Below are positions 2,421 to 12,230 of a stretch of DNA of 52,251 nucleotides, in pieces (positions within the stretch are counted from its first letter, which is position 1; each line of letters opens with the position of its first letter). The notes below the pieces were generated by a model. That model made no database searches. It saw nothing but the letters and a program-made list of their open reading frames with translations, and was not told the origin of the DNA. The translations under genes and the position numbers were made by a program. Source of the DNA: Candidatus Delongbacteria bacterium. GTDB lineage: Bacteria; UBA4055. The stretch is taken from contig JAFGVM010000008.1 of assembly GCA_016937995.1 (NCBI GenBank), positions 1-52,251 of the forward strand. The letters run 5' to 3'.

Positions 2421-5204
2421 ATGAAAACATCAGAACACGCAGACAGGACCGAGAAGCTGGTCGGTATCAGAGCTGAGGATATCCACAAATGGATAGACGG
2501 GTTCTTTGATTTTGACGGATTTGAAGATTTCCTTCGTTCAGAGAAACTTACCGGTTATGATCCATATGACCATAGAAAATTCAGGCATTGTATTGAAGCT
2601 TTGGATGAAGCATACCAAACTTTTGCGGATAAATACACCAAAGAGCAGATAAAAGCTGTCTTTGAATCACATATCAAGGATGATTACAACGGATATATTC
2701 CCCACAGAGAAGATTTTGAGAACGGTACTTTCACTGAGCATTACCATGAAAATGATGGCAGGGAAGAAAGTGAATCGATCCTGAGTGAAACTGAACTTTC
2801 GGATTATTTCAAAGGTAAATTCTATACTCAGAGTAAGAAAAAGAATAAAAAAATTACTACCGGTTTTCAGTTAAGGATCGTTCTACCGACAATTCTGGCT
2901 ATAATTTTATTCGTATCGTCAGTTTTTACAGTGATACTACCGGTTTTCAGAAGCAATATGCTCGAAAGAAAGAAAGAAATGATCAAAGAACTTACTGCAG
3001 CCGCTATAAGTGTCATTGAATTTAACATCGACTTGGAAAAGAAAGGAACTCTTACGAGAGAGGAAGCTCAGAATAAATCGATCATTGAAATAGAAGCCAT
3101 GAGATATGGTGATGAGAACAAAGATTATTTCTGGATCACTGATATGTACCCGAGAATGGTAATGCATCCCTATAGAACTGATTTGAAGGGACAGGATCTT
3201 TCAGATTTTAAAGATGTCATGAACAAGAGTGGAAAATATCTCTTTGTTGAGTTCGTAAAGATCGTAAAAGCTCAAAAAGAGGGATATGTAGAATATCTCT
3301 GGCAGTGGAAAGATGATGAGAGCAGGGTCGTTCCAAAGCTTTCTTTCGTTAAAGGTATTCCTGAATGGGAATGGATCATCGGTACAGGTGTATATATTAA
3401 TGATGTAGAAGATGAGATAGCACTTCTTTCAAAAAATATAACGATAATATTTTCATTCATTGCCGGACTTTTAATACTGATATTGACCTATGTGATCTTC
3501 CAGAGCAGGAGAATAAACAACGATCTTCTAAAAGCTGATGCGGGTCTTATTGAAGCTAAAGACAGGTATAAAGCATTAGTAGAAGCATCAAATGAAGGTC
3601 ATATACTTGAAGTCGAAGGTGAAAATGTCTATTCAAATTTCACTTTGCAGAAAATGCTCGGATACAGCGGAAAAGAGATATCCTCTATGAAAACAGTGGA
3701 TCTTTTAGTCCCGGATTCCAAAGTAAATGAAGAAGGTCTGAATCATCTGAAGAAACTTTCTTCAGGGAAAACTATGTCAGGTGAATTTGAAGCTCAGGTA
3801 TTAACAAAGACCGGAGAGATCCTGGATGTAGTCATCACAACTGCAAGGATATTCTTTCTGAAAAAGAAAGGTCATGTGATCTCAGTCAGAAAAATATTGA
3901 GAAAGAAATCCAATGATATGATGATCTCCTACAGTGGAAACCAATATAATCCCGGAAGTATTTTTGCAACAAAGAAGGTCAAAGATATCTGTAGAAAAAC
4001 CACCGAAGAAGACAAGTCTGACACAGAGAAGATTTCATCAGAAACACCGGTATTTGAAGCTCTCGAAGTAATGAAGAATTCTGAAAGAGACAATCTAAAT
4101 GTTATTGATGAAAACGGAAAGATCATCGGAATTGTAGGCTATTATGACATCGCAATGATGTACTCTGGATTGCCTACAGGAATGCTTTTTGAAATTGAGA
4201 ACAGTGAAAATGTAGGTCATGTTATAAGAACTCTCAATAGATTACCGGACCTTATCAAGGAAATGACAGCACAGGGGATAAGATCTGACACTCTCCGGGA
4301 AACTATAAGTAAGATGTATACTGCTGCAATTAAGTTATTTATAAAAATATCTTTAGAAGAATCAGGAGAACCTCCAGTTAAATTTGCATTTCTTTCTCTC
4401 GGAAGTACAGCAAGACAGGAAATGACAATGTTCTCCGATCAGGATAATGCACTGATATTTGAAGATACACAGGATATAGATAAAGCTAAAAAATATTTCA
4501 TCAGGTTTGCCGATAAAGTATGTACAAAGCTGAATAAAGCAGGTTACCCGTTCTGTCCGGGTGGAATTATGGCAGTAAACCCAAAATGGTGCCTGTCATT
4601 GACAGAATGGAAAGATAATTTCACCGAATGGATCGAAAATGCAACACCGGAATCGATCTTAGAGATCAATGTCTTCTTTGATATTCGTTGTGACTACGGA
4701 GAAGAAAAATTAGTTACGGATCTTCAGGATCATATCAAAGAAAAAACAGAGCAGAACCCGGCATTTTTCATAAATTTTGCCCAGAATTGTCTAAGATACA
4801 GAGAACCTTTGAATCTTCTCGGAAGGATCAAAGCCGAAAGCAAAGATGGAGCTAAAACTTTCAATATTAAGGATAATTTGATCCCGATAGTAAATTTTGG
4901 CAGATTATATGCGCTGAAGAACCATGTAACCGAACCGAGTACGGTCAAAAGATTACATGCTCTTTATGAAAAAGATATTCTAAAGGATAAGGAATATCAT
5001 GAAATAGTGTATGTATTCAATCATTTATGGCATTTAAGATTTTATAATCAGATAATATCTCATTCAGAGTTGAAAAAAGCAGATAACGAGCTTGATCTTG
5101 AGCAGTTAACAGATATTGAGAGATTGAATTTAAGGAATGTGCTGGCGGAGATATCGAATTTCCAGGCAAGGATCAGTAGCGATTTTCTGGATGGAACAAT
5201 GTAG
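2421..5204 (+). CDS. Membrane signal-transduction protein: N-terminal His-rich domain, TM, Cache sensor, TM, PAS, CBS, DUF294 nucleotidyltransferase and substrate-binding domain
   Basis: Cache: YFWITDMYPRMVMHP...GYVEYLWQW...PKLSFVK..PEWEWIIGTGVY. Two TM helices flank it. PAS: RYKALVEASNEG...N..LQKMLGYS. CBS: ETPVFEALEVM...VIDENGKIIGIV. NTase motif LGSTARQEMTMFSDQDNALI and GYPFCPGGIMAVNPKW. Confidence 0.85.
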   Translation: MKTSEHADRTEKLVGIRAEDIHKWIDGFFDFDGFEDFLRSEKLTGYDPYDHRKFRHCIEALDEAYQTFADKYTKEQIKAVFESHIKDDYNGYIPHREDFENGTFTEHYHENDGREESESILSETELSDYFKGKFYTQSKKKNKKITTGFQLRIVLPTILAIILFVSSVFTVILPVFRSNMLERKKEMIKELTAAAISVIEFNIDLEKKGTLTREEAQNKSIIEIEAMRYGDENKDYFWITDMYPRMVMHPYRTDLKGQDLSDFKDVMNKSGKYLFVEFVKIVKAQKEGYVEYLWQWKDDESRVVPKLSFVKGIPEWEWIIGTGVYINDVEDEIALLSKNITIIFSFIAGLLILILTYVIFQSRRINNDLLKADAGLIEAKDRYKALVEASNEGHILEVEGENVYSNFTLQKMLGYSGKEISSMKTVDLLVPDSKVNEEGLNHLKKLSSGKTMSGEFEAQVLTKTGEILDVVITTARIFFLKKKGHVISVRKILRKKSNDMMISYSGNQYNPGSIFATKKVKDICRKTTEEDKSDTEKISSETPVFEALEVMKNSERDNLNVIDENGKIIGIVGYYDIAMMYSGLPTGMLFEIENSENVGHVIRTLNRLPDLIKEMTAQGIRSDTLRETISKMYTAAIKLFIKISLEESGEPPVKFAFLSLGSTARQEMTMFSDQDNALIFEDTQDIDKAKKYFIRFADKVCTKLNKAGYPFCPGGIMAVNPKWCLSLTEWKDNFTEWIENATPESILEINVFFDIRCDYGEEKLVTDLQDHIKEKTEQNPAFFINFAQNCLRYREPLNLLGRIKAESKDGAKTFNIKDNLIPIVNFGRLYALKNHVTEPSTVKRLHALYEKDILKDKEYHEIVYVFNHLWHLRFYNQIISHSELKKADNELDLEQLTDIERLNLRNVLAEISNFQARISSDFLDGTM

Positions 5205-5551: not shown

Positions 5552-5794
5552 ATGGACAGAGATAAATTATCAGTACTAGCTATAAGTGACAGCGGATTCA
5601 TTTTTGATCCGGTGACAGGTCATTCATATACTGCAAATGCAACAGGATTAAGAATTTTTGAATTACTTAAAGAAGATAAGTCAGAAGATGAGATAAAAAG
5701 TATTCTGATGGAAGAATTTGAAACAACAGAAGATGAAGTCAGTGTAGATGTGGATGATTTTATTGAGAATTTGAAAAAATATTTTCTCGTGTAA
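5552..5794 (+). CDS. Stand-alone PqqD-family / RiPP recognition element (RRE) protein
   Basis: 80 aa with three short strands then three helices: GFIFDPVTGHSYTANATGLRIFELL...EDEIKSILMEEFET..DEVSVDVDDFIENLKKYFLV, the PqqD pattern. RBS GGAG. Confidence 0.85.
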   Translation: MDRDKLSVLAISDSGFIFDPVTGHSYTANATGLRIFELLKEDKSEDEIKSILMEEFETTEDEVSVDVDDFIENLKKYFLV

Positions 5795-5805: not shown

Positions 5806-5964
5806 TAGTGGTAAGTGATAAGTGGCAAGTGGTCAGTTCGTATGGGCACAATATATTGTGCCCATACGAACCACAACAAACATGAATGTAGGGAACGCCT
5901 AACAGCCGTTCCCATAAATGCAAAAAAAGATTGCCACGGATTGTTCACCAATCCTCGCAATGAC
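5806..5964 (+). repeat. Intergenic repeat cassette: heptamer tandem, 36-bp perfect palindrome, GTAG-REP, GATTGC...GCAATGAC element
   Basis: TAGTGGT/AAGTGAT/AAGTGGC/AAGTGGT (from 5806); GTTCGTATGGGCACAATA|TATTGTGCCCATACGAAC (5836-5871); GTAGGGAACG...CGTTCCC (5888-5913); GATTGCCACGGATT..AATCCTCGCAATGAC (5929-5964). Confidence 0.85.
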
Positions 5965-5976
5965 ATAGGAAAAAGT

Positions 5977-7014
5977 ATGAAAATAGTCGTAGCAGTCAGC
6001 GGTATTAACGCAGTGGACAACCCGGGTCCGGGAACAGGGATCTGCAAAGCATTGAAAGAAAGTGATCTTGATATAAGAACTATCGGATTGGCTTATGATG
6101 CTATGGAACCCGGCGTTTACATGGACAACATTATTGATAAAAGTTATATCATGCCATATCCATCCGGCAGTAGAGAAGCTTTTATCGAAAGGATCAAGCA
6201 TATACATTCAGTAGAAAAAATAGATGTTATAATATCAGCTTTAGACGCAGAATTACCAATCTATATGGATATAGAACCGGTCCTTCAGGAACTTGGAATA
6301 AAGATGCTGATCCCTACAAAGGAAATGTTCAAAACAAGGGATAAGCTGAGGCTGAAAGAATTGGCGGAAACGATCGGTGTAAAAGCTCCCGAATACAGAA
6401 GCTGTACTTCTATCAGAGATCTTCATGATTCAACAGAGAATGTCGGATTTCCATGCATGGTAAAAGGTCCGTTCTACGAAGCTTTCAAAGCAAATAATAT
6501 CTCTGAAGCGGAAGGTTACTTCCATAAGATAGCAATGGCATGGGGCTATCCGATCATCGTACAAAAATTCATTACAGGTGATGAGTATGATGTCATCGGT
6601 TGCGGAGACGGGAAAGGGAACGATATAGGTGTTTTTGCGATCAGGAAAATGACGATCACAAAACTCGGAAAGGTCTGGAATGCGGTTAGCATAAAGAATG
6701 AAAAGCTCATCGAAGCAACAAGGAAGGTAGTTAAAGGTCTTTCCTGGAGAGGTGGATTTGAGTTTGAAGTTCTGGTCGAAAGTTCATCGCAGGATATTTA
6801 TGTACTTGAGATTAATCCAAGATTTCCCGCATGGGTTTATTTTGCAGCGGGATGCGGTATAAATCTTCCAGAGAGAATGGTGAAACTTCTGCTGAATAAG
6901 GAGTATGAAACAAATTCAAATTACGACAGTGGAAAATTAATGATAAGATTCACAAATGAAATGATCAAAGATATAAAGGATTTTGAACAAATATCGACAA
7001 CAGGGGAAACATAA
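5977..7014 (+). CDS. ATP-grasp ligase (carbamoyl-phosphate-synthase-like); true start at 5977, not 5815
   Basis: Start MKIVVAVSGINAVDNPGPG preceded by AGGA. ATP-grasp motifs RDKL, GFPCMVKG, IIVQKFITGDEY, FEFE and VLEINPRFP. The upstream 54 in-frame codons consist of repeat DNA. Confidence 0.88.
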   Translation: MKIVVAVSGINAVDNPGPGTGICKALKESDLDIRTIGLAYDAMEPGVYMDNIIDKSYIMPYPSGSREAFIERIKHIHSVEKIDVIISALDAELPIYMDIEPVLQELGIKMLIPTKEMFKTRDKLRLKELAETIGVKAPEYRSCTSIRDLHDSTENVGFPCMVKGPFYEAFKANNISEAEGYFHKIAMAWGYPIIVQKFITGDEYDVIGCGDGKGNDIGVFAIRKMTITKLGKVWNAVSIKNEKLIEATRKVVKGLSWRGGFEFEVLVESSSQDIYVLEINPRFPAWVYFAAGCGINLPERMVKLLLNKEYETNSNYDSGKLMIRFTNEMIKDIKDFEQISTTGET

Positions 7015-7017
7015 AGA

Positions 7018-7172
7018 TAGGGGTTAGGGATTAGGGGTTAGGGGTTCGTAGAGACGTTGCCCTGCAACGTCTCACAACACACCACGACCAATAATCCCGT
7101 AGGGGCATTATTTATAACGCCCGAAAAACGAAAAAAAAGATTGCCACGGATTTTAAAAATCCTCGCAATGAC
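7018..7172 (+). repeat. Intergenic repeat cassette: (TAGGGGT)4 heptamers, two GTAG-REPs, GATTGC...GCAATGAC element
   Basis: TAGGGGT-TAGGGAT-TAGGGGT-TAGGGGT (7018-7045); GTAGAGACGTTGC..GCAACGTCTC (7048-7073); GTAGGGGCATTAT..ATAACGCCC (7099-7122); GATTGCCACGGATTTTAAAAATCCTCGCAATGAC (7139-7172). Confidence 0.85.
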
Positions 7173-7195
7173 AAACATAAAACACAGGTGACATT

Positions 7196-8548
7196 ATGAA
7201 AAAAGAATATATTAAACCGTACATTAAGAAACAAACAGCCGGAATTATGAATAAATTCGGTGTTTCTTACAATAAAGGTCACAGAGAAGATATTTTAGGT
7301 ATTCCTATCGGGAATTTCACCGATAAATTCGGATCCCCCGTCTTCGTTCTCAGTGAAAAGCTGATCAGAGAAAGATATAGAAAAATATATTCGCACTTTT
7401 CAAGTAAATATCCCAAAGCAAAAATGTCATGGTCGTATAAGACCAATTATCTCGATGCCGTTTGTTCAATAATGCATCAGGAAGGGGAAACTGCAGAAGT
7501 AGTTTCAGACTTTGAATATCAGAAAGCGAGAAGACTGGGAGTTCCAGGGAATAAGATAATTTATAACGGTCCATATAAACCGATAGAATCTTTGAAAGTT
7601 GCTTTCCAAGAAGGAGCAATGGTCAACCTTGATAATTTTGATGAACTTATAAAAGCAGAAGATGCCGCAAAGAGTATTAATAAAAAAGTTCCCGTCGGTA
7701 TCAGAGTGAATATGGACACCGGAGTATATCCTCAGTGGTCAAGATTCGGATTCAATATAGAAAATAACAGTGCATTCAATGCCGTAAAAAGGATCCAGCA
7801 CAGTGAAAATCTTTACTTAGAAGGAATTCATTGTCATATCGGAACTTTCATGCTTGATCCGAATGCGTACAGGGAAGCTGTGAAAAAAGTCGTTGCTCTG
7901 ATGAGAAAGATCGAAATTATGTTCAAAATAAATATCAAATATCTTGATTTCGGTGGAGGTTTTCCTTCAATGAATAAACTGAAAGGAACATATTTACCTC
8001 CTGAAGTTTCAGTTCCACCTGTTGAAGAATTCATTGATGCAGTGGCAGATACCTTATTAGAGGAACTTAAACCGGATGAATATCCTGATGTTTATTTAGA
8101 AACCGGTAGATCTATCATTGATGAAGCAGGCTGGTTGATAACTTCAGTTGATGCAGTGAAAAGGCTTCCCGACGGAACAAAAAGTTATATAATTGATGCA
8201 GGTGTAAATTTATTATATACTTCGACCTGGTACAATTATAAGGTCGAAATTGACAGAGAGCTTCACGGAGCTTATGAAAATTCAGTGATCTACGGACCTC
8301 TCTGCATGAACATTGATGTCGTTGTTGAAAGTGCATTTTTACCACCTTTACCAATAGGTACAAGGCTGATTTTATCTCCAATGGGAGCTTACAATGTTAC
8401 TCAGTGGATGCAATTTATAAGATACAGACCTGCTGTTGCAATGATAATGGAGGATGGTTCACTTGAGGAAATCAGAAGACCTGAAACTCTTGATGATGTG
8501 GTCGGACCTGAAAGAATACCAGAAAAATTAAAGAAGTTTGAGCTATAG
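7196..8548 (+). CDS. Fold-type III PLP-dependent decarboxylase-like enzyme (LysA/BtrK-like), substrate unknown
   Basis: PLP lysine in WSYKTNY; SRFG; HCHIGT; DFGGGF; ETGRS; GPLCMNID; MGAY. Lacks the Cys-Glu/Asp pair of true LysA/ODC, so no gene symbol is assigned. Confidence 0.85.
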   Translation: MKKEYIKPYIKKQTAGIMNKFGVSYNKGHREDILGIPIGNFTDKFGSPVFVLSEKLIRERYRKIYSHFSSKYPKAKMSWSYKTNYLDAVCSIMHQEGETAEVVSDFEYQKARRLGVPGNKIIYNGPYKPIESLKVAFQEGAMVNLDNFDELIKAEDAAKSINKKVPVGIRVNMDTGVYPQWSRFGFNIENNSAFNAVKRIQHSENLYLEGIHCHIGTFMLDPNAYREAVKKVVALMRKIEIMFKINIKYLDFGGGFPSMNKLKGTYLPPEVSVPPVEEFIDAVADTLLEELKPDEYPDVYLETGRSIIDEAGWLITSVDAVKRLPDGTKSYIIDAGVNLLYTSTWYNYKVEIDRELHGAYENSVIYGPLCMNIDVVVESAFLPPLPIGTRLILSPMGAYNVTQWMQFIRYRPAVAMIMEDGSLEEIRRPETLDDVVGPERIPEKLKKFEL

Positions 8549-10624
8549 ATGCGAGAAAAAAATAAAATCATCGTACTATTTGAAGACCTTACGGGGTCAT
8601 TTTCGAATTTGATCTTCATCAAAAGTAAAATTGTCGGACTTTTGCTTTTTGTCTGTACACTTTTCAATCTGAATATTGCATCTCAGGGAATTATCTCTCT
8701 AGTTGTGGCTGTCCTGTTTGCAAGGTTCATCGGCATAAAAAAGGATGACCCGATAAATAAATTATACAGTTATAATGCTCTACTGACCGGTTTCGCAATA
8801 GGATTCTTATTTAAAGTGACTTATCTGTCTATTATTATGACAGTTGGAATGAGCATAATGACAGTTCTTCTAACCTACACATTGAGCTCGGTACTGTATA
8901 ATTTATTCAAGCTGCCGGTACTGAATATCCCATTCACGATCTCAGCAACAATAATTTATTTATCTTCAAGTAAGTACAGTAATTTGATCGTAGATTCGTT
9001 CTACAGGCAGGATCATTTTAATTTAGATTTTATTCCCGGATACATTCAGGGATTGCTCAGAGCAGCAGGAATACTGGTATTCATGCCTTACGATATTATC
9101 GGGATAGTCGTACTTCTGGCAATATTGTTCTATTCCCAGATAACTTTTTTTGTCACGATATTTTCATATTATACAGGGATATTATTTCTGGCATTATTGA
9201 AAGGGAGTCTTCCTTTAGCTTTTGCAGAGATATCTTCATTTAACTTTATACTGGTCGGTATTGCTCTCGGTGGAATGTTCCTTATTCCATCTAAAAGGAC
9301 CTATCTGCTTACTTTCACTGCAGTATTAGCTTCAGTGTTTATCATAGACGCAACTTCAGTATTCTGGGTATCTTTCGGAATACCAGTATTTACACTTCCG
9401 TTCAACCTTACGGTTCTGTTATACATCTATGTCCTGGGCAGTGTGAAATATCCAATGATGAACTATACTTCTCTGGATCAACCTGAAAGATCACTGGTAA
9501 ATTTCCTGAACTACAAAAACCGTTTCGACTGGATCACTCCGTCAATAAATCTTCCATTTATGGGTAGATGGACAGTATATCAAGGATTCAACGGGGAGTG
9601 GACACATAAAGGTGTGTGGAAATATGCCTATGATTTTGTCATTGAGGATGATGAAGGTAAAACTTACAAAGGTAACGGATCAGAAAAAGAGGATTTCTAC
9701 TGTTTCGGTAAACCGGTAATCTCTCCAATTGACGGAACTATTGTTGAGACATATGATGACCTGGAAGATAACGAACCAGAGCAGGTCGATAAGGACAACA
9801 ACTGGGGGAATTATGTAATGATCCATTCCCCGCTGGGATATTACATTGAAATATCTCACCTGAAAAAAGATTCGGTCAAGGTAAAAATAGGAGATTATGT
9901 CACAAAAGGAACACCATTAGCAGAATGTGGTAATTCCGGGTACTCACCTCAACCCCATTTGCATATTCAGCTGCAATATTCTCCATATATAGGTTATGCA
10001 GGATTTGAGTTTAAATTCAACAGTCTAAAGTTAGCTGACAGTGGTACAATAGATCCTGATTTATTAGTCAAGGGCAACAAGGTAATTCCGCTTACATCAT
10101 CCAAAACGATCAGCAGGAAATTTCAGTTCATTCTTGATGAGGAATTCAATTATGATATTTATGAAAATGATGTAAAAGCAGCTGAACTCAGTTTAGCAGT
10201 TAAAATGGAATCTGATGGAACTTATTATTTCTCTGATACTGATGGCAATAGACTTTATTTCGGCAAAGACAAAGACAGATTCGTATTCTTTAAATATTCA
10301 GGTGACAAAAGAACTTATCTCAGATATTTTATGATCGCGATGCCTTCTCTGTCACTAACAGATGAAAATAATTTCACATGGTCCGAATATTTATCTGATG
10401 ATCTTTTGTACTCGAAATTTCCTAAAATACTGAAATCATTCTATCATTCTTCTGATACGACCACTGGCAGGTATACAAAAGTTAAGGAAAATATTATTGA
10501 AGGTAAGATCATTAAGAATAAAACAGGTCTTTTTGATACTGAGATCACACTTTGCGACTTCAAAGGGTTTAAGGATATCATTATAAATGAGAGTGAAAAG
10601 AAGATCTGGATGACAAAAGTATGA
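8549..10624 (+). CDS. Urea-transporter-family membrane domain fused to an M23 metallopeptidase domain plus an uncharacterised C-terminal region
   Basis: About 10 hydrophobic helices with duplicated UT-type motifs (LYSYNALL...LPVLNIPF; SFNFILVG...IPVFTLPF). Then M23 features THKGVWKYAYDF, PVISPIDGTIV, WGNYVMI, SHLK..SVKVKIGDYV and CGNSGYSPQPHLHIQ. Confidence 0.82.
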   Translation: MREKNKIIVLFEDLTGSFSNLIFIKSKIVGLLLFVCTLFNLNIASQGIISLVVAVLFARFIGIKKDDPINKLYSYNALLTGFAIGFLFKVTYLSIIMTVGMSIMTVLLTYTLSSVLYNLFKLPVLNIPFTISATIIYLSSSKYSNLIVDSFYRQDHFNLDFIPGYIQGLLRAAGILVFMPYDIIGIVVLLAILFYSQITFFVTIFSYYTGILFLALLKGSLPLAFAEISSFNFILVGIALGGMFLIPSKRTYLLTFTAVLASVFIIDATSVFWVSFGIPVFTLPFNLTVLLYIYVLGSVKYPMMNYTSLDQPERSLVNFLNYKNRFDWITPSINLPFMGRWTVYQGFNGEWTHKGVWKYAYDFVIEDDEGKTYKGNGSEKEDFYCFGKPVISPIDGTIVETYDDLEDNEPEQVDKDNNWGNYVMIHSPLGYYIEISHLKKDSVKVKIGDYVTKGTPLAECGNSGYSPQPHLHIQLQYSPYIGYAGFEFKFNSLKLADSGTIDPDLLVKGNKVIPLTSSKTISRKFQFILDEEFNYDIYENDVKAAELSLAVKMESDGTYYFSDTDGNRLYFGKDKDRFVFFKYSGDKRTYLRYFMIAMPSLSLTDENNFTWSEYLSDDLLYSKFPKILKSFYHSSDTTTGRYTKVKENIIEGKIIKNKTGLFDTEITLCDFKGFKDIIINESEKKIWMTKV

Positions 10625-12074: not shown

Positions 12075-12230
12075 GTCCCGATTGATCGGGACAATGTCCA
12101 AATAAAACCGTAGGGAACTGTTTCAAACTGTTCCCGAATGTACACAGGGACGAACCCATGTGTTCGTTTGGAAGGGTTGCCGTTAATGCATAAATAGATT
12201 GCACGGATTTCATAAAATCCTCGCAATGAC
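12075..12230 (+). repeat. Intergenic repeat cassette of REP-like palindromes plus GATTGC...GCAATGAC element
   Basis: GTCCCGAT-TG-ATCGGGAC (12075-12092); GTAGGGAACTGTTT-C-AAACTGTTCCC (12110-12135); GGGACGAACCCATGTGTTCG (about 12147-12166, matching 35537); GATTGCACGGATTT..AAATCCTCGCAATGAC (12197-12230). Confidence 0.8.

Follow-up and report, generated by a model that had tools for sequence, protein, structure and literature searches.

The window analysed here, a stretch of 52,251 nucleotides from a Candidatus Delongbacteria bacterium, carries a conserved cassette that comprises a PqqD-like RiPP recognition element (RRE; RiPP, a peptide made by the ribosome and modified post-translationally), an ATP-grasp ligase, and a pyridoxal 5′-phosphate (PLP) decarboxylase with an N-terminal tail, usually accompanied by a fusion of a urea transporter and an M23 metallopeptidase (UT-M23). 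The tail, residues 1–22 of the decarboxylase (MKKEYIKPYIKKQTAGIMNKFG; 7196..7261, + strand), is a leader-like recognition sequence as judged by translation, conservation, disorder, and a hidden Markov model (HMM) of the tail. From the sequences, there is about an even chance that these residues are a leader mimic by which the cassette RRE docks the decarboxylase, such that the RRE–tail pair is read by the ATP-grasp and the tail is not consumed.

In the proposed mechanism, the lasso-type RRE would clamp the [Y/F/W]5-x-x-P8-x-I10 element of the tail in its hydrophobic cleft. By homology, Asp66 of the RRE would hydrogen-bond the Tyr hydroxyl, Asn29 would fix the kink at Pro, Phe70 would divide the two pockets, and Leu74 would line the pocket for Ile10, while the residues following the motif would add a β-strand to the RRE sheet. 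The RRE–tail pair, together with a second conserved block (GxMNKFG), would be read by the ATP-grasp ligase, in analogy to the surface that a lasso RRE and its leader offer to the next enzyme. The ATP-grasp and the decarboxylase would work as one assembly in which the former joins an amino acid to an acceptor through an amide bond and the FslC-like decarboxylase then removes the α-carboxylate, with the tail serving as a dock. The sequences show the motif with its conservation and predicted disorder, its co-occurrence with the RRE, the type and pocket residues of the RRE, and the lack of another candidate ligand; from these, we infer the binding, the role of the ATP-grasp as the reader, and the chemistry.

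The tail lies ahead of the enzyme fold. Matches to the lysA and FslC models begin at residues 32 and 38, respectively, and the alignment to FslC in the PDB begins at profile position 25; because the FslC and LysA models and the 7kh2 structure align only from about residues 25–38, at least the first 22 residues of the decarboxylase are an add-on. Its core motif, Y5-I-K-P8-Y-I10 (7208..7225, + strand), is an instance of [Y/F/W]xxPx[I/L/M/F], and the block G16-x-M-N-K-F-G22 (7241..7261, + strand) follows. Both were defined by conservation in an alignment (A3) of 78 decarboxylase homologs from species-representative genomes covering more than ten phyla. In A3, P8 is present in 78/78 sequences, position 5 is aromatic in all (Y in 70, F in 6, and W in 2), and position 10 is I in 72, L in 3, M in 2, and F in 1. 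The second block is retained to a similar degree, with G16 in 62/78, N19 in 58/78, K20 in 75/78, F21 in 60/78, and G22 in 73/78, and a 25-sequence alignment shows K7, P8, N19, and G22 to be invariant. The best 120 homologs listed by a word-indexed search are mostly of ~450 amino acids, with 57–93% identity at 98–100% coverage. At the protein level, homologs that keep the tail span 45–93% identity and many phyla. The linker that follows (residues 23–29) varies in both sequence and length.

An AlphaFold2 model of the decarboxylase, for which the 78-sequence alignment served as input, has a mean predicted local distance difference test (pLDDT) score of 88.8 and a confident fold from residue 30 on, with residues 1–28 at a pLDDT of 42–55 and devoid of secondary structure. 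The tail ranks among the best-conserved segments of the protein yet is disordered in the monomer model, and thus it resembles a short linear binding motif. As predicted from sequence, it is a disordered N-terminal segment with a lasso/LPP recognition motif of the [Y/W]xxPx[L/V/I/F/A] type. A motif of the form [YW]xxPx[LVIFA] occurs within the first 16 residues of 9/1886 first-ATG open reading frames (ORFs) of at least 150 amino acids in this genome (~0.5%); at that frequency, its presence in one sequence alone is weak evidence, and the significance comes from the conservation. In a six-frame search of the genome with the tail HMM, the decarboxylase is the sole match (E 1.1e-11), the next hit having an E value of 0.52, while a PDB sequence search with the 28-residue tail gave no match at E values up to 10.

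The candidate reader of this motif is a discrete PqqD-like RRE of 80 amino acids (5552..5794, + strand), identified by Pfam PqqD, a PDB profile search, and its pocket residues. It matches Pfam PqqD (PF05402) with an E value of 1.7e-12 and 47.9 bits vs a cut-off of 23.4, and it is the sole PqqD-family gene in the genome. Its best NCBIfam match is the lasso PqqD chaperone, at scores below the cut-offs (34.7 bits vs 70 for NF033530 and 24.5 vs 80 for NF033536); by sequence, the cassette RRE is a subfamily related to the lasso_PqqD chaperones and not a member of them. A profile of 67 cassette RREs finds the lasso proteins TbiB1 (5v1u, 2.1e-13) and TfuB1 (6jx3, 7.2e-12) in the PDB with much better scores than PqqD (3g2b, 6e-4).

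Lasso leaders are read via a YxxPxL motif, the Tyr, Pro, and Leu of which sit in a hydrophobic cleft of the RRE, as described in PMC6784204. A 2026 study (PMC13381572) widens the motif of lasso/LPP RREs to [Y/W]xxPx[L/V/I/F/A]. For LppB, it describes a hydrogen bond from D70 to the leader Tyr, an N33 that holds the kink at Pro in place, an F74 that keeps the two pockets apart, and an M78 that lines the second of them. The PbaB1 counterparts given there are G42, Q79, F83, and L87, and the G42N/Q79D substitutions let PbaB1 take Tyr-type leaders. HMM coordinates place LppB N33/D70/F74/M78 and PbaB1 G42/Q79/F83/L87 on N29, D66, F70, and L74 of the cassette RRE at a constant offset, and the Asp of an ERD sequence is shared with TbiB1 and TfuB1 when these are aligned directly to the cassette RRE. 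Among the 67 RRE sequences, N29 is found in 65, D66 in 60, F70 in 65, and L74 in 66. The retention of these four residues suggests that the cassette RRE carries a Tyr-type YxxP pocket; judged by its sequence, it has the signature of a PqqD-like RRE including the leader-binding residues.

D66 was fixed from the literature as the predicted partner of Tyr5 before the pairs of residues at the two positions were tabulated. Tail position 5 and RRE position 66 pair as Y-D in 59 loci, F-Y in 5, Y-G in 1, W-D in 1, and W-E in 1, such that all Phe5 loci (5/5) carry Tyr66 and vice versa. A further 40 distinct pairs from metagenomes comprise 38 Tyr5-Asp66 and 2 Tyr5-His66. The Phe5 sequences form one clade (6 tips, support 0.994), the sister of which, L026, has Y and D. 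The joint Y5F/D66Y change at a predicted contact is one evolutionary event, which is suggestive and not proof. In the two loci with W-type tails (L059 and L081), the RRE changes reported for WxxP-specific RREs are not seen.

The tail and the RRE also travel together. In a scan of species genomes, at least 598 stretches were retrieved, of which at least 585 encode a relative, and 80 loci were kept for analysis. The cassette occurs in Aquificota, Thermodesulfobacteriota, Campylobacterota, Planctomycetota, Gemmatimonadota, Bacteroidota, Cloacimonadota, Francisella, and others. Two of the 80 loci lack the N-terminus of the decarboxylase, one (L082) lacks the motif, and 71 of the 77 motif-bearing loci extend far enough upstream to be testable. 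HMM searches place an RRE within the locus in 69/71, and the two others (L015 and L021) have one elsewhere in the genome. The same holds for L053, a locus that ends early upstream and whose RRE adjoins the ATP-grasp elsewhere in the genome. The decarboxylase of L082 (7001–8254, from a metagenome-assembled genome of Pirellulales) has V-Q-A-P-Q-F in place of the Y-Q-A-P-Q-I of its relatives; its aromatic anchor is replaced by Val, and the motif looks decayed. In that genome, the completeness of which is not known, neither an RRE nor a cassette-type ATP-grasp was found.

Within the phylum of the window, the tail is present in 11/11 cassette-type decarboxylases with a visible N-terminus and in 0/15 paralogs (one true LysA, nine resembling ornithine decarboxylase, and five of a third group), none of which has cassette neighbors. 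Across 16 genomes of the phylum, the RRE and the cassette decarboxylase are both present in 12, both absent in 2, and discordant in 2 (assemblies 86–88% complete). Among 79 metagenome loci, an RRE is found in every locus that reaches far enough upstream, and the 20 without one stop at a contig end.

No other ligand for the RRE emerges from the window, the genome, or the related loci. There is no small ORF of note within the window, and none of the 1024 small ORFs located up to 1 kb upstream of the RRE in the loci is conserved; those shared between genomes are confined to near-identical pairs, and eight chance matches to the motif are unconserved. The tail HMM detects nothing besides decarboxylases in the 80 loci. 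A search for a free-standing tail-like peptide (query residues 1–44) gave one match, a truncated decarboxylase, although this search used words of the window sequence only and distant peptides could escape it. The genome has 0 matches to the lasso B2 protease, and its Asn-synthase homologs are on other contigs. By sequence, the decarboxylase itself does not fit the picture of a RiPP precursor in the sense of a short product with a modified and released core: it is a 450-residue enzyme with a confident fold, there is no lasso protease, and no invariant modifiable residue follows the motif.

These results confirm the observation behind the original prediction and support its interpretation in part. 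From the window sequence, it had proposed that the enzyme has an N-terminal extension ahead of its fold, that YIKPYI is an RRE recognition motif, and that the RRE operon has no small precursor ORF. The extension is borne out by the later start of the FslC and LysA models, YIKPYI proves to be a conserved instance of the lasso/LPP motif, and neither a conserved small ORF nor a second leader-like sequence was found in the genome or the 80 loci. It had also named conservation of the motif in cluster homologs as one check to make, and the counts at positions 5, 8, 10, 20, and 22 in A3 agree with that expectation. The further expectation, that the motif is confined to decarboxylases with a neighboring RRE, is matched by its absence from all 15 RRE-less paralogs and from the FslC and LysA models.

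The decarboxylase gene (7196..8548, + strand) encodes 450 amino acids and is assigned by Pfam, NCBIfam, PDB, and AlphaFold2 comparisons to the FslC/diaminopimelate decarboxylase (DAPDC) clade of fold-type III PLP decarboxylases. A Shine-Dalgarno-like hexamer, AGGTGA, lies at 7186–7191, a few bases before its ATG. The ORF matches the Pfam domains Orn_Arg_deC_N (PF02784, 4.9e-34) and Orn_DAP_Arg_deC (PF00278, 6e-12). K82 of the WSYKTN sequence (the PLP lysine), G253–G255 of the Gly-rich phosphate loop, and the catalytic C370 are invariant in the 78-sequence alignment, and these regions align with matching stretches of FslC and of Methanocaldococcus jannaschii LysA. With both Pfam domains, the Lys, the Gly loop, and the Cys, the protein is by sequence a fold-type III PLP decarboxylase of the DAPDC/FigC clade. 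It scores 212.5 bits against the NCBIfam FslC model (NF041039; cut-off 500) and 198.3 bits against lysA (TIGR01048; cut-off 297.9) and is a member of neither family. Its closest relative in the PDB is 7kh2, the N-citrylornithine decarboxylase FslC (E 5.2e-91), with BtrK (7ru7) at E 7.6e-43. The enzyme had been called LysA-like; the PLP decarboxylase fold implied by that name holds, but LysA is not its closest kin, FslC being nearer.

A plain housekeeping role as LysA was considered because a lysA match above the NCBIfam cut-off is found in only 1/16 genomes of the phylum. This role is not favored; the score falls short of the lysA cut-off, and carriers of the cassette are also found among Aquificota, Campylobacterota, and Francisella (genomes in which a separate LysA was not looked for). 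In the genome of the window, the only such enzymes are that of the cassette and a distant paralog (C65).

The ATP-grasp ligase (5977..7014, + strand) is supported by Pfam ATP-grasp_3 and ATPgrasp_Ter, a homolog alignment, and Foldseek. Its true start is probably M55 of a 399-residue ORF opening at 5815, as its homologs align from about residue 55. The AlphaFold2 model has a pLDDT of 93.5, and its best Foldseek match is 2pn1, followed by carbamoyl phosphate synthetase (CPS), biotin carboxylase, PurK, and L-amino-acid ligases; this search returned generic relatives only, with no hint of the substrate.

The UT-M23 gene (8549..10624, + strand) follows the decarboxylase in most loci and combines a urea-transporter-like membrane domain (Pfam UT, 4.8e-50), an M23 metallopeptidase (Peptidase_M23, 1.4e-12), and a C-terminal domain. 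The transporter-like part has 10 transmembrane segments, and the C-terminal domain, of ~200 amino acids, is of unknown kind. The H..D, H, and HxH zinc/catalytic residues of the M23 domain are kept in 64 UT-M23 sequences. If its termini lie on the cytoplasmic side, as in structures of urea transporters, the M23 domain would be intracellular, which is unusual.

In some genomes the ATP-grasp and the decarboxylase are a single protein. Such fusions comprise 13 protein clusters of 836–934 amino acids (among proteins P0122–P0135), which suggests that the two enzymes are functionally coupled, and one further ORF joins the decarboxylase to the UT domain in a fusion-like manner. The [Y/W]xxPx[I/L] motif is kept in 9/9 ATP-grasp–decarboxylase fusions read, at a position in the linker that is preceded by a long low-complexity stretch, and the only fused locus with context (L124, 454–3123) has an RRE directly upstream. 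The RRE–tail contact might set the orientation of the active sites, switch on the ligase, or present the tail. A high-GC sub-clade (L124–L126, L128, and L132–L136) has the RRE, the ATP-grasp, and the tailed decarboxylase without UT-M23, indicating that the constant core consists of the former three. Within this sub-clade, a cytochrome P450 and a TylF-type methyltransferase lie downstream in L133 (8425–10345), which resembles natural-product tailoring, and a Ser/Thr kinase lies downstream in L124.

Several points weigh against docking via a leader mimic. The mapping of the RRE pocket onto LppB and PbaB1 rests on a constant 18-residue offset that presumably reflects a tag in both constructs. The F5/Y66 co-change is a single monophyletic event and could be due to hitch-hiking. 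Co-occurrence cannot tell the RRE from the ATP-grasp as the partner of the tail, because the L082 genome lost both together. In lasso leaders, the hydrophobic anchor and the next Gly are 4 residues apart; in the tail, this distance is 6 residues. Lastly, fusion of the two enzymes should render an RRE that serves as a tether superfluous; the persistence of the motif in fusions, and of the RRE in L124, suggests that the RRE–tail contact would do more than tether, which speaks against a purely tethering dock.

An unlikely alternative is that the tail is the true substrate, such that the enzyme is its own precursor and the RRE feeds the tail to the ATP-grasp, which would modify it covalently, or to the M23 domain, which would cleave it, perhaps behind the conserved Gly22. 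A tethered-arm variant is possible, in which the tail would receive an amino acid by ligation and the enzyme would decarboxylate it in cis, in the manner of BtrI/BtrJ/BtrK. Cast in terms of the whole enzyme, the decarboxylase would be an enzyme-embedded RiPP-like precursor or carrier whose tail is handed by the RRE to the ATP-grasp and/or M23 and is covalently decorated, used as a swinging arm for an attached amino acid on which this enzyme itself acts as decarboxylase, or clipped after Gly22, which is judged rather doubtful. All evidence for RRE binding applies equally to a substrate. The GxMNKFG block roughly equals the RRE motif in conservation and occupies the place at which the next enzyme reads lasso leaders. 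Tethering alone seems insufficient to account for the fusions that keep the motif and for the RRE of L124. The catalytic residues of M23 are retained throughout the 64 UT-M23 proteins, and M23 peptidases favor Gly at the cleavage site. Moreover, BtrK acts on a carrier-bound glutamate after an ATP-grasp step and MccE on a peptide conjugate, as described in PMC7857480. The conservation of GxMNKFG and of the M23 residues and the chemistry of BtrK and MccE lend a substrate role some plausibility.

However, the tail offers no universal site for modification. Apart from Pro8, no position is invariant over A3, the fusions, and the loci from metagenomes, and no carboxylate, amine, or hydroxyl side chain is universal among these sequences; in the high-GC and fused clade, K20 gives way to Q, R, T, A, or S, and E6, K7, and K12 also vary. 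This favors docking over modification. Furthermore, the tail persists in the high-GC clade that lacks UT-M23, the ATP-grasp is CPS-like and not of a known peptide-modifying kind, and the use of a whole enzyme molecule for each product would be expensive.

It is similarly improbable that the tail serves the enzyme itself, be it as a lid, a dimer contact, an autoinhibitory element, or a site at which the ATP-grasp or the membrane protein docks directly, with the RRE having another ligand and the likeness to YxxPxL being convergent. A monomer model cannot reveal dimer contacts, the loss of the ATP-grasp along with the RRE makes their co-occurrence with the tail not specific to the RRE, and the covariation of positions 5 and 66 is one event. 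Nevertheless, the RRE retains its full YxxP pocket, and neither the genome nor the 80 loci contain another candidate ligand. In addition, the conserved aromatic, Pro, and aliphatic residues at i, i+3, and i+5 are exactly the positions that lasso-type RREs read, and the change of D66 to Y coincides with that of Y5 to F at the pair predicted beforehand. A chance likeness, for which the frequency of the loose motif near the start of long ORFs could be invoked, or a mis-called start that leaves the tail untranslated is scarcely credible, being contradicted by the conservation of the tail, with its invariant Pro, across homologs of 45–93% identity from many phyla, and, for the start, by the Shine-Dalgarno-like hexamer upstream and by the motif kept inside fusion proteins, where its translation is obligatory.

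Docking through a leader mimic, as favored above, has its closest parallels in the lasso pairs TbiA–TbiB1 and TfuA–TfuB1 (FusA–FusB1) and in the LPP pair LppA–LppB. These likewise have a disordered segment with a [Y/W]xxPx[L/V/I] motif at its N-terminal end and a discrete PqqD-like reader of ~80 amino acids, of which TbiB1 and TfuB1 are the nearest solved structures; the Asn, Asp, Phe, and Leu of the pocket are kept. In contrast to these systems, the “leader” here is the first 22 residues of a 450-residue PLP enzyme rather than part of a precursor of 35–200 amino acids. Its partners are an ATP-grasp, a decarboxylase, and UT-M23, there is no B2 protease, and there is no sign of a core peptide after the motif.

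The decarboxylase shares its fold with the FslC/FigC clade (SbnH, AcsE, MccE, and BtrK), FslC being its best relative, and a ligase is encoded beside the decarboxylase here too. Every characterized member of this clade covered in PMC7857480 decarboxylates an amino acid that is joined to a larger group, suggesting that the likely order of reactions in the cassette is ligation by the ATP-grasp and then decarboxylation. Unlike the FslC system, the cassette has an ATP-grasp instead of an NRPS (nonribosomal peptide synthetase)-independent siderophore synthetase, FslC has neither tail nor RRE, and the score of the decarboxylase against the FslC model (212 bits vs 500) sets it apart.

The BtrI–BtrJ–BtrK system of butirosin is a similar trio of a small protein of ~80 amino acids, an ATP-grasp, and a DAPDC-clade decarboxylase, and the gene order of the btr cluster matches that of the cassette. 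BtrI, however, is an acyl carrier protein, whereas the small protein of the cassette has an RRE fold; a BtrI-like carrier role for the RRE was ruled out, since it has no conserved attachment residue. In borosins such as OphMA, the precursor is fused to its methyltransferase, so that the recognition/substrate segment and the enzyme are in one polypeptide. The borosin core is C-terminal and is methylated by its own enzyme without an RRE. In contrast, the segment of the cassette decarboxylase is N-terminal, would be read by an RRE in the favored view, and is not known to be modified.

RREs serve as class-independent beacons in RiPP mining, where a short precursor is assumed to lie close by. In the cassette, a lasso-type RRE seems to read a leader-like stretch within a metabolic enzyme of 450 amino acids, and a peptide-recognition module has seemingly been re-used on an enzyme, in an arrangement present in at least 585 species-representative genome stretches. 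If the binding is true, a large set of precursor-less RRE clusters would be explained, the leader/RRE pair could act as a general protein–protein docking module, and the tail peptide with its RRE would provide a handle on an uncharacterized and very widespread ATP-grasp/decarboxylase pathway. If the tail is instead a substrate, the cassette would be a self-priming biosynthetic machine distributed across more than ten bacterial phyla. Full-text literature searches, with subscription journals and supplements outside their scope, found no published account of this gene combination, and one RRE survey, searched by term, names the ATP-grasp only as a neighborhood filter.

Directly upstream of the cassette, the window encodes a sensor protein of 927 amino acids (2421–5204) with Cache, PAS, and CBS domains and a DUF294 nucleotidyltransferase pair; in the 80 related loci, this protein was not found beside the cassette. 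A short dispersed repeat, in which two conserved halves flank a small hairpin, occurs in each of the two cassette spacers (5922–5965 and 7133–7175). Half-copies are found near 12216 and 34464, and each half has 13–15 exact copies in the 2.7-Mb genome. Because the genes are tightly packed in related genomes, the spacers seem to stem from the insertion of a small mobile repeat. The spacer between the RRE and the ATP-grasp also contains a perfect 36-nucleotide palindrome (5836–5871), and that between the ATP-grasp and the decarboxylase contains a G-rich run resembling TTAGGGG and, after it, another hairpin (7019–7046).

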